Shown in pieces: positions 53,368 through 55,074 of a stretch of DNA of 64,000 nucleotides. Positions within the stretch are counted from its first letter, which is position 1. Every line of letters begins with the position of its first letter. Source of the stretch: Burkholderiales bacterium RIFCSPLOWO2_12_FULL_65_40 (GTDB taxonomy: Bacteria > Pseudomonadota > Gammaproteobacteria > Burkholderiales > Burkholderiaceae_C). Where the stretch lies: positions 31,726 through 95,725 of the forward strand of contig MESL01000006.1 of assembly GCA_001770955.1 (NCBI GenBank), in the 5' to 3' direction. Position numbers and translations under genes: made by a program. The notes beneath the pieces were generated by a model that saw only the letters and a list, made by a program, of their open reading frames with translations, was not told where the DNA came from and did not search any database.

Positions 53368-55074
53368 AACCTAGAAACGGCGGTTGGATGCGCCCGCCGG
53401 TACCGTGATCGGGATGCCAGGCAAGACGCGACGACGCCGCGGGCTCCTGCCCGCAAGGAGGAGCAACGCCGCATGGCGCCCCGAGCGCGGTGCTGGCGGA
53501 TGCATAGCGCTCTCACCCATCGGGTGAACACCATCGGAGCCATCAACGATTGATTTCATGCGGCTTGGCAAAGGTTACAAAGCGGTCAACTGAATAAGAA
53601 GGGACTTCCCACTTCCGGGTAACGGTATCAAAGTACCCAGCTTGGAAGATGTGACAGTCAAGCTCAAACCCATGTTGGAAGGAGAAGTCCCATGCGCAAG
53701 ATTATCCGAGTTGGTGTTGACCTGGCAAAGAATGTCATCCAGGTTCACGCGGTCGATGAGCACGGCACAGTGGTGGTGGCACGGGCCCTCAGGCGGGAAA
53801 AATTCATAACCTGGTGCGTCCAATTGCCCGCAGGTTGTCTGATTGCGATGGAGGCCTGCTCGGGTGCACACCACTGGTGCCACAAGCTGCAAGCGCTGGG
53901 CTTTGATGCCCGCATGATCCCGGCGCAGTTCGTTGCCCCCTATCGCATCCAGGGCAACAGCGGCAAGAACGACGCCAACGACGCGGCAGCCGTGTGCGAA
54001 GCTGCCTCGCGTGCCCACATGCACTTCGTCACCCCCAAGACAGTAGAGCAGCAAGGCATGCTCAGCGTGCATCGCCTGCGCGAAGGCATCAAGGAGGAGC
54101 GCACTGCACTGATCAACCGCATTCGCGGCCTGCTGGCCGAATTCGGTATTGTCGTGCCGCAAAGTCCGGATGTATTACGTAGCCAGCTGCAAGAACTGTT
54201 GGAAGATGCCAGCAATGAGATCGCCAGTCTGGCGCGCTTGGTGCTGCAAAGAGCGCAGCAGCACTGGCAGGAACTGGACGAACACATGCGCTGGTGCGAT
54301 GAGCGTATTGCTGCACACCATCAAAGCGACGAGCGGGTGCAGCGTGCCGCCCAGCTGATGGGCGTGGGGCCTGTGACGGCATCGGCACTGATTGCCACCG
54401 TTGGTGACTTCAATCAATTCAAGAATGGGGCGCAACTGGGCGCCTGGCTGGGGCTGGTGCCCAAACAAAACTCCAGCGGTGGCGTGGCACGTCTGGGCGG
54501 GATTACCAAACGGGGCGACATCTACTTGCGTACCTTGCTGATTCAGGGCGCCAAGGCGGTGGTGCTCACGGGCAAGCAATGCACGAACAACCCCATTGGT
54601 CAATGGGCGCAGAGCTTGCGCCAGCGCAGCAACTGGTACAAGGCGGTCGTTGCCCTGGCCAACAAGAATGCCCGCATCCTTTGGGCCATCATGACCCGCG
54701 GGGAGAACTTCGATGCGTGCCATGTCAGCACCAAGCACGTACGCATGCCCAGGCCTGCAATCTGATCGCCAGCAGCTTGAGAATTTGAAGGTTCCCTGCC
54801 AGCCAGACGTGTAGCCAAAGATGCCATGAACAGGTCAGACCGGCAGCAGGCAAGCTCGGTAAAAACGCTGTGACCCAAAGTCACGACAACTGAATTGAGC
54901 CCTGCTGAGCGGTTCGTATCTGGGGCCGCACCCAATGACACGAGGTGCAACAAGCCCGGCTGTAGATGAGCAGTCTGTCCCTTGTTTCAGGTGCCAAGGC
55001 AAGCGTTAAGGTGGAGCAGAAATTTTGAGAAAACTATTGACTACGTGGGAAGTCCCTGTAGCCGTTTCTAGGTT
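53368..55074 (+). mobile_element. IS110-family insertion sequence with flanking/subterminal inverted repeats (exact ends unresolved)
   Basis: An IS110-type transposase ORF is bracketed by a perfect 14-bp inverted repeat (53368-53381 and 55061-55074) and a nested 13-bp inverted repeat (53600-53612 and 55045-55057). The first 60 nt of the ORF are 30/60 G+C by hand count, whereas the flanks look much richer. The element interrupts an intergenic region between conserved genes. Confidence 0.8.
53692..54765 (+). CDS. IS110-family transposase (DEDD/RuvC-like N-domain, Tnp_20-type C-domain)
   Basis: MRKIIRVGVDLAKNVIQVHAVDEHG...IAMEACSGAHHW...KNDANDAAAVCEA is the N-terminal domain. The C-terminal part contains GVGPVTASALIATVGDFNQFKNGAQLGAWLGLVPKQNSSGG...TKRGDIYLRTLLIQGA. 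A Shine-Dalgarno GGAGAAG lies upstream. Confidence 0.9.
   Translation: MRKIIRVGVDLAKNVIQVHAVDEHGTVVVARALRREKFITWCVQLPAGCLIAMEACSGAHHWCHKLQALGFDARMIPAQFVAPYRIQGNSGKNDANDAAAVCEAASRAHMHFVTPKTVEQQGMLSVHRLREGIKEERTALINRIRGLLAEFGIVVPQSPDVLRSQLQELLEDASNEIASLARLVLQRAQQHWQELDEHMRWCDERIAAHHQSDERVQRAAQLMGVGPVTASALIATVGDFNQFKNGAQLGAWLGLVPKQNSSGGVARLGGITKRGDIYLRTLLIQGAKAVVLTGKQCTNNPIGQWAQSLRQRSNWYKAVVALANKNARILWAIMTRGENFDACHVSTKHVRMPRPAI

Follow-up and report, generated by a model that had tools for sequence, protein, structure and literature searches.

The window examined here, a 64,000-nucleotide stretch of the draft genome of Burkholderiales bacterium RIFCSPLOWO2_12_FULL_65_40, contains between mrpG and an oxoprolinase gene a convergent intergenic region that is occupied by a DEDD transposase/recombinase gene (53692-54765, plus strand, 357 amino acids) and bracketed by two 14-bp arms, aacctagaaacggc at 53368-53381 and its exact reverse complement gccgtttctaggtt at 55061-55074. 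The gene, the arms and the IS110/IS1111-type affiliation had all been recognized in the original prediction, and our reading of the sequence and of the Pfam matches agrees with it. We propose that the locus most probably results from two nested events, in which an insertion sequence (IS) of the IS1111 family, of the seekRNA type, came to lie inside a terminal inverted repeat (TIR) of a miniature inverted-repeat transposable element (MITE) derived from the IS1380 family. An inverted 14-bp pair less than 2 kb apart is expected by chance about 0.5 times in 64 kb (64000 x 2000 x 4^-14, our own estimate), so the reality of the arms rests on their recurrence.

Other parts of the genome contain a 238-bp repeat, free of the IS, with these arms at its ends. 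A search of the assembly (57 contigs, 3.77 Mb, 94% complete) with window positions 53300-55150 found segment 53367-53592 again on contigs C54, C35 and C34 (89-93% identity), together with a diverged copy on C23 and fragments on C42, C41 and C35, for a total of five full and three partial copies. The 225 bp at 53368-53592 are present without a transposase at four other full-length sites, and none was found near the IS-free copies of this genome. These copies read across the insertion point as ...gcggtcaactg^ccgttt(t/c)taggtt, joining the 53592 side straight to the 55062 side, and the arms are consequently the two ends of a single unit of about 238 bp, normally some 210 bp apart. The TIRs of aligned copies measure about 17 bp and read CCTA(A/G)AAACGGCAGTTG. 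At the window locus the left TIR, cctagaaacggcggttg (53370-53386), opens the plus-strand MITE segment that runs to the caactg of the right TIR (53370-53592), and beyond the IS, at 55061-55072, come an ambiguous G and the outermost 11 bp (ccgtttctagg) of the right TIR. Target site duplications (TSDs) of 5 bp are perfect in three of the five copies (ttcaa, tttac, tttaa) and match at four of five positions in the others (ctgag/ctgaa and, in the window, tccaa at 53365-53369 with ttcaa at 55073-55077). They are consistently 5 bp in other genomes too, where those of many copies are perfect; their form is often TTNAA, CTNAG or GTNAC, and in Ottowia it is a perfect ataac. With its length of 238 bp, TIRs, 5-bp TSDs, multiple copies and a full-length relative bearing the same TIRs, the unit is by its sequence characters a MITE, and it was found in 51 of the 301 sampled genomes of the host's family (41 of 201 genera). 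To judge by the named relatives Ottowia, Polaromonas and Comamonas, that family is probably Comamonadaceae-like. In three DNA metagenomes the summed contig depth over the MITE is about 4 to 40 times the left-flank value, in keeping with a multi-copy repeat.

The state of the locus before either insertion can be read from a genome of the same genus (G002; flanking gene 93% identical), whose orthologous region, ...ggccaatttcaTTCAAaattgc..., holds a dispersed intergenic repeat resembling repetitive extragenic palindromic (REP) sequences and a single TTCAA, with no MITE, IS or palindrome. A sediment-metagenome contig joining 53364 to 55073 is weaker evidence of the same empty form (one contig, 29 nt on one side). 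These empty sites bear on the original prediction, which had placed the left end of the IS at 53382 and taken the arms for the halves of a hairpin target, a 26-28-bp perfect REP-like palindrome (aacctagaaacggc(gc)cgtttctaggtt) split at its centre by an IS spanning 53382-55060. Exact reverse complements bracketing a transposase gene do invite this explanation, and some IS110/IS1111 members target REP palindromes (PMC11187229). However, at four other full-length sites segment 53368-53592 has no IS and its arms are about 210 bp apart, the joined palindrome has 0 matches in the genome at up to 4 substitutions, the empty G002 locus offers only TTCAA, and an almost identical IS on a metagenome-assembled contig (L108, described below) starts at the same AATAAG and not 211 bp earlier. 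Deleting 53382-55060 would thus remove 211 bp that are not IS, and the split-palindrome reading, refuted by the empty sites, is in our view wrong. The arms do lie outside the IS, as had been anticipated, and the IS does home to a repeat. That repeat is the MITE TIR; the REP-like sequence beside the left arm ("copy H", 53310-53364), genuinely a dispersed one, only adjoins the MITE site and is not the target.

Comparison with the IS-free MITE copies, and of L108 with the window genome's own C34 copy, places the IS at 53593-55060 (1,468 bp, plus strand). Loose ends of metagenome contigs give the same bounds: some diverge exactly at 53592 and continue as CCGTTTCTAGG, as in IS-free MITEs, and others diverge exactly at 55060 and continue as AAGGGTTAG, as in a relative with another target. 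With bounds at 53593-55060 instead of 53382-55060, a 218-bp GC-rich segment passes to the MITE body. The junction carries one ambiguous base (53592/55061), since the flanks read caactG and Gccgttt where empty sites have a single G, and one base is likewise common to both flank alignments of L108 against C34; it represents a duplication of 1 bp unless the extensions are 8/3 or 7/4, in which case the IS would measure 1,469 bp. Within these bounds, a 7-bp left terminal extension (aataaga, 53593-53599; kept as AATA[C/A]GA in relatives with recovered ends) precedes a left subterminal inverted repeat, agggacttcccac (53600-53612), the perfect 13-bp complement of the right one, gtgggaagtccct (55045-55057), which is followed by a 3-bp right extension (gta, 55058-55060). 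The non-coding regions measure 99 bp at the 5' and 295 bp at the 3' side (54766-55060).

The recombinase matches PF01548 (DEDD_Tnp_IS110; E 7.7e-16, residues 7-151) and PF02371 (E 3.4e-24). Its candidate catalytic residues are D10, E54, D94 and D97, picked by motif from the translation and not by structural alignment, and its GLVPKQNSSG fits the family motif GL-P----SG and aligns with the LTPRRYESGS region of IS621. In a phmmer comparison with IS621 (8WT6) only the C-terminal domain aligns, weakly (E 1e-5), and the N-terminal domain does not. The IS1111 family is distinguished from IS110 by subterminal repeats, 7/3-bp extensions and a longer 3' non-coding region (PMC11187229). The perfect 13-bp pair falls within the 11-13 bp of IS1111-family repeats, and the traits of IS110 sensu stricto and IS621 are wanting, the upstream non-coding region being 99 bp, the guides lying in the 3' non-coding region and subterminal repeats being present. 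The window IS is, on this anatomy, a member of the IS1111 family. Of the 301 family genomes, 84 contain elements of 65-73% DNA identity, and all 18 relatives with both ends recovered show the ends AATA[C/A]GAAGGGACTTCC...GGGAAGTCCCTGTA. The best plasmid-borne protein match is 70% identical; this tblastn search of plasmids returned only "IS110 family transposase" labels, the Klebsiella match inspected being unannotated, and so yielded no closest ISfinder name. Near-identical copies of the 1.85-kb stretch come mainly from groundwater and sediment metagenome runs of several studies, a hint at the habitat of the host lineage.

The relatives also bear on a reading in which the left 225 bp are the upstream non-coding end of the IS itself, comparable to the bridge-RNA region of IS110/IS621-type elements, and the IS-free copies are solo left ends remaining after deletion. 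The segment is GC-rich, hairpin-dense and directly upstream of the transposase gene, as such a reading would have it, yet the IS-free copies have both TIRs and their own 5-bp TSDs, and the homologous segment is oppositely oriented relative to the IS in Ottowia and in a metagenome contig (L107). Moreover, about 20 relatives with other targets share the AATA[C/A]GAAGGG left end without the segment, and the guide matches lie in the 3' region. We give this explanation almost no weight and retain the nested arrangement of IS and MITE.

How the IS would find a MITE TIR is suggested by its 3' non-coding region. Aligned across relatives, these regions consist of a conserved scaffold with two variable segments. 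One follows GCTCG(R) and complements the right flank; the other, placed ahead of the constant GAAT(G/T)G, repeats the sequence of the left flank. In the window IS the first segment, taaaaacgc at 54860-54868 (TAAAAACGC, plus strand), is complementary to the MITE TIR and would be the top-strand guide: TAAAAACG pairs perfectly with CGTTTTTA of the consensus TIR. The second, the putative bottom-strand guide, is ACAACTG at 54886-54892, followed by the constant aat (54886-54895 in all); the left flank ends in the 6 nt CAACTG and the IS opens with the 3 nt AAT, and together they reproduce the left junction. A consensus fold of 21 relatives (RNAalifold) contains 41 pairs, 13 of them with compensatory changes, and places both guides within a single internal loop that has a covarying hairpin as its cap. 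Read from the 5' end, the top-strand complement comes first and the bottom-strand complement second, the order described for IS1111 seekRNAs (PMC11187229). We consequently predict that the IS encodes a guide RNA of the seekRNA (or bridge) type at 54831-54975 on the plus strand. Rfam covers neither this RNA nor the MITE, a scan of 53000-55400 at E up to 1 giving only a chance CRISPR-DR20 match (E 0.43). Inspected by eye for donor-binding guides, the RNA shows a CTGTAG that resembles the right IS end; covariation could not be shown and we make no claim from it. Two contigs of an activated-sludge metatranscriptome, with 1-2 differences from the IS, span 53657-54091 and 54507-54965; the second covers the predicted RNA, which is weak evidence, and both are compatible with transcription, the gaps at 54136-54505 and from 55024 onward being evidence of nothing.

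Exact-pattern scans for the left junction revealed five further insertions. The closest, on the metagenome-assembled contig L108, differs from the window IS at one position in 1,468 bp (99.93%), carries the window's guides and occupies the ortholog of the MITE copy on C34, which is empty in the window's genome. Another metagenome contig, L109, breaks off 86 nt into an IS that is 100% identical over that length and lies in the ortholog of copy C35b; the guide region falls beyond the contig end. On the Ottowia caeni chromosome (L085), a 72% relative occupies the other TIR of a homologous, reverse-oriented MITE with the TSD ataac, its guide TAGATTCG facing CGGATCTA with one G.U pair. In a Polaromonas metagenome-assembled genome (L084), a 72% relative (80% over the 3' non-coding region) lies in a solo or truncated TIR, with TAAATCCG facing CGGATTTA. 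The last, the 69% relative on L107, sits in a reverse-oriented MITE, with TAGAAACG facing CGTTTCTA. All six insertions, the window's included, share one position and one orientation relative to the TIR, and the guides track the TIR variants across the pairs TAAAAACG/CGTTTTTA, TAGAAACG/CGTTTCTA, TAAATCCG/CGGATTTA and TAGATTCG/CGGATCTA. Sequence comparison thus shows TIR position, orientation and guide-target match to be reproduced, by independent insertions, across four IS lineages. The MITE copy at C35:247216-247298 is internally deleted in the window's genome, where homology ends at C35:247298 and the matching right end stands at the start of C41 (C41:96-137); on L109 its counterpart is complete on the right and contains the IS. 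This points to a rearrangement, or else to a break in the assembly, at this copy.

For 19 elements, own-flank matches to the guides average 6.95 of 9 and 5.0 of 7 positions, against 4.44 and 3.0 for the flanks of other elements, and these values were reached in 0 of 20,000 permutations, a figure that overstates significance because the relatives are not independent. This non-independence is one of several points that weigh against a guided insertion as proposed here. The top-strand guide has one C/A mismatch to the occupied copy (CGTTTCTA) and two mismatches to the L108 site, so that the pairing rules must be looser than a simple match, and its register relative to the IS end varies by 1 nt among relatives. 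Extensions of 7/3 bp without duplication predict two Gs at the empty site where one is present. The IS is single-copy in its own draft assembly despite seven free targets with at most one mismatch, three of them perfect and all in MITE TIRs. Finally, the sole RNA support comes from the two metatranscriptome contigs, which possibly reflect DNA carry-over.

The MITE itself can be traced to a probable parent family. In the IS1380 family (e.g., ISEcp1), ends begin with CC(TAG) and insertion produces 5-bp AT-rich target duplications. A fragment of a PF13701 (IS1380-type) transposase in genome G261 has the TIR variant CCTAAATCCGGCAGTTG upstream, and the G261 protein used as a family query retrieved open reading frames of 433-561 amino acids in several genomes. 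Six loci, together with the decayed G261 copy, hold a transposase gene between paired MITE-type TIRs 1,630-1,678 bp apart; TSDs are perfect in three cases (ttcac, ctaat, atcaa), and the 542-amino-acid reading frame at L093 matches PF13701 and PF01609. These full-length relatives resemble the IS1380 family in their CC(TAG)-type ends, 5-bp AT-rich TSDs and PF13701 transposase, whereas the window copy is a 238-bp non-autonomous derivative. Judged by these shared ends, the MITE arose by deletion from an IS1380-family IS of about 1.65 kb found in related genomes. A PF13701 gene was not found in the window's own genome (94% complete), and the MITE copies there are consequently probably stranded.

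This bears on whether MITE and IS now form a single 1.7-kb composite, moved in trans through its outer arms by an IS1380-family transposase. The outer TIR tips and the TSD are intact and such transposases are present in related genomes, but none was found in this one, the right TIR is broken 11 bp from its tip, a second composite copy is absent, and on L108 and L109 the IS is in other MITE copies, having moved by itself. We regard such a composite as very unlikely, if slightly less so than the two readings rejected above, and keep to separate nested elements.

Three other candidates for the parent were set aside. An unpaired TIR-like site of the window's genome (C43:185261) is accompanied by open reading frames with no obvious transposon layout. 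The flank of the Polaromonas insertion (L084) encodes a heptosyltransferase and an aminotransferase, has no second TIR within 8 kb and represents a solo or truncated TIR. An intact PF13701 gene in genome G033 (L086) is not bounded by the MITE TIR. G033 also carries a second MITE of about 175 bp (L086:3061-3236) with the same TIRs (CCTAGAAACGGCAGTTG ... CAACTGCCGGAAATAGG) and an unrelated interior, and gave 218 first-look candidates with the MITE query; it may hold very many copies. An unpublished genome (G145; L066, L096) appears in our listings and is the basis of no claim.

Several observations concern the MITE and its surroundings. Its GC-rich core (window 53410-53480, about 45-115 of the unit) is kept alone, at up to about 86%, in several genera and has no Rfam match. 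Minus-strand reading frames of 66-72 amino acids across the MITE body (53328-53571) are most likely spurious products of a GC-rich repeat. Besides the window copy of the REP-like repeat of about 50 bp, aatagctatcagcgcttaccc...tttcat (window 53310-53367; also C42:~16700-16790), the genome has at least 15 more partial matches to window ~53310-53372, and the repeat is also present at the empty G002 locus. A MITE copy directly adjoins it at two loci, on C6 and C42, and in other genomes IS1380-type elements lie beside AATAGC-containing repeats (L062, L067, L090). This suggests that the MITE and IS1380-type elements prefer TTCAA/ATCAA beside REP-like repeats.

Many of the nearest relatives of the window IS lie in another kind of site, ...TTGACCG^AGGGGTTAGGC, the R' end of attC sites. 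No inverted target copies were found upstream of such other relatives, whose targets are attC sites. The nearest relatives within the host's family (65-73% DNA identity) have identical end motifs and a common RNA scaffold. One relative of the IS1111-attC type (L050) lies inside an array in genome G195 in which the motif GACCGAGGGGTTAGGC occurs 177 times in one orientation, those listed falling within about 100 kb (C1:1980336-2078287; L110, L112, L114-L119). Each motif is the GTTAGGC end of an imperfect palindrome of about 125 bp starting with GCCTAAC; G195 has here, on its chromosome, an integron cassette array of attC sites of very large size. On the basis of the ends and scaffold shared with attC-sited relatives, we place the window IS in the IS1111-attC group, of which it would carry a different guide pair. 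It looks like a naturally retargeted offshoot of that group, although either target may be the ancestral one.

Compared with described IS1111-family elements (ISEc11, ISPa11, ISKpn4/ISPst6; Siddiquee et al. 2024, PMC11187229), the window IS has the same DEDD and PF02371 domains with GL-P----SG, 13-bp subterminal repeats, long 3' non-coding region, guide order and -35 near the right end; its terminal extensions, aataaga and gta, fit 7/3 bp, but it departs from the "7/3, no duplication" rule by one extra G at its junction. It differs from the IS1111-attC group (Tetu & Holmes 2008, as cited in PMC11187229) in guide segments and target. IS4321/IS5075, also of the IS1111 family, target the 38-bp TIRs of Tn21-family transposons (Partridge & Hall 2003, as cited in PMC11187229); as there described, they resemble the window IS in homing to the TIR of another transposon at one position and in one orientation, although the host element here is an IS1380-type IS/MITE with TIRs of about 17 bp and not a Tn3-family transposon. 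In Coxiella burnetii, IS1111 has its preferred target inside QMITE2, with occupied and empty copies varying by strain (PMC5896051); that target is a GTAG REP palindrome within QMITE2, unlike the terminal repeat targeted here, and the MITE families are unrelated. Finally, IS621/IS110 (Durrant et al. 2024, PMC11208160; PDB 8WT6) likewise combine a DEDD recombinase with an RNA internal loop reading both strands at the crossover, whereas the window IS has its predicted RNA 3' of the gene, the opposite order of guides, and subterminal repeats. The mechanism is consequently not new: within the IS1111 family, transposon TIRs are already described as targets of IS4321/IS5075, and a MITE (QMITE2) as that of IS1111.

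We propose the following history and mechanism. A MITE of about 238 bp would first have inserted into TTCAA beside the REP-like repeat, duplicating those 5 bp, and the 1,468-bp IS would then have entered its right TIR between CAACTG and CCGTTT(C/T)TAGG, 11 bp from the MITE tip. The IS would leave as a circle whose abutted ends form a promoter, TTGACT-16 nt-TA(G)AAT, driving the DEDD recombinase gene and the 3' non-coding region. The latter would yield a structured seekRNA (bridge-type RNA), in which the 5' side of the internal loop (TAAAAACG) would pair with the top strand right of the insertion point and the 3' side (CAACTG, then AAT) with the bottom strand left of it. This pairing would steer site- and orientation-specific recombination into IS1380-type TIRs. 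Sequence establishes the anatomy, the empty sites, the repeated independent insertions at one position and the covariation within the RNA and between guides and targets; RNA production, the circle and catalysis are here inferred from the family.

The promoter would draw on the outward-facing -35 TTGACT (55037-55042, plus strand), 18 nt from 55060, whose suitability for a junction promoter had been pointed out from the start. It is kept in most relatives and is followed by 16 nt and then TA, the last two bases of the IS, so that abutted ends would give a -10 of TA(G)AAT with the ambiguous G and TAAATA without it. Pjunc promoters are described for the IS1111 family (PMC11187229) and the one predicted here matches them, as a prediction only.

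The window locus may thus be viewed beyond its own genome. An IS1111-family target consisting of the TIR of an IS1380-family IS or MITE is, to our knowledge, new, and the RNA-guided IS1111 family thereby gains a target class, the terminal repeat of IS1380-type IS/MITEs. The small natural series of guides changing with target variants also provides comparative material for the pairing rules of seekRNA/bridge RNAs, including mismatch tolerance, G.U pairs and register. More tentatively, and at somewhat under even chances in our estimation, the lineage may have become a parasite specialized on IS1380-family transposons and their MITEs, derived from attC-targeting IS1111 elements by guide reprogramming, its guides co-evolving with TIR variants (four guide/TIR pairs). 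Were this so, each insertion would split, and probably disable, one transposon end, and these elements would preserve, over several steps, a natural account of how RNA guides were retargeted from one class of mobile-element recombination site to another.

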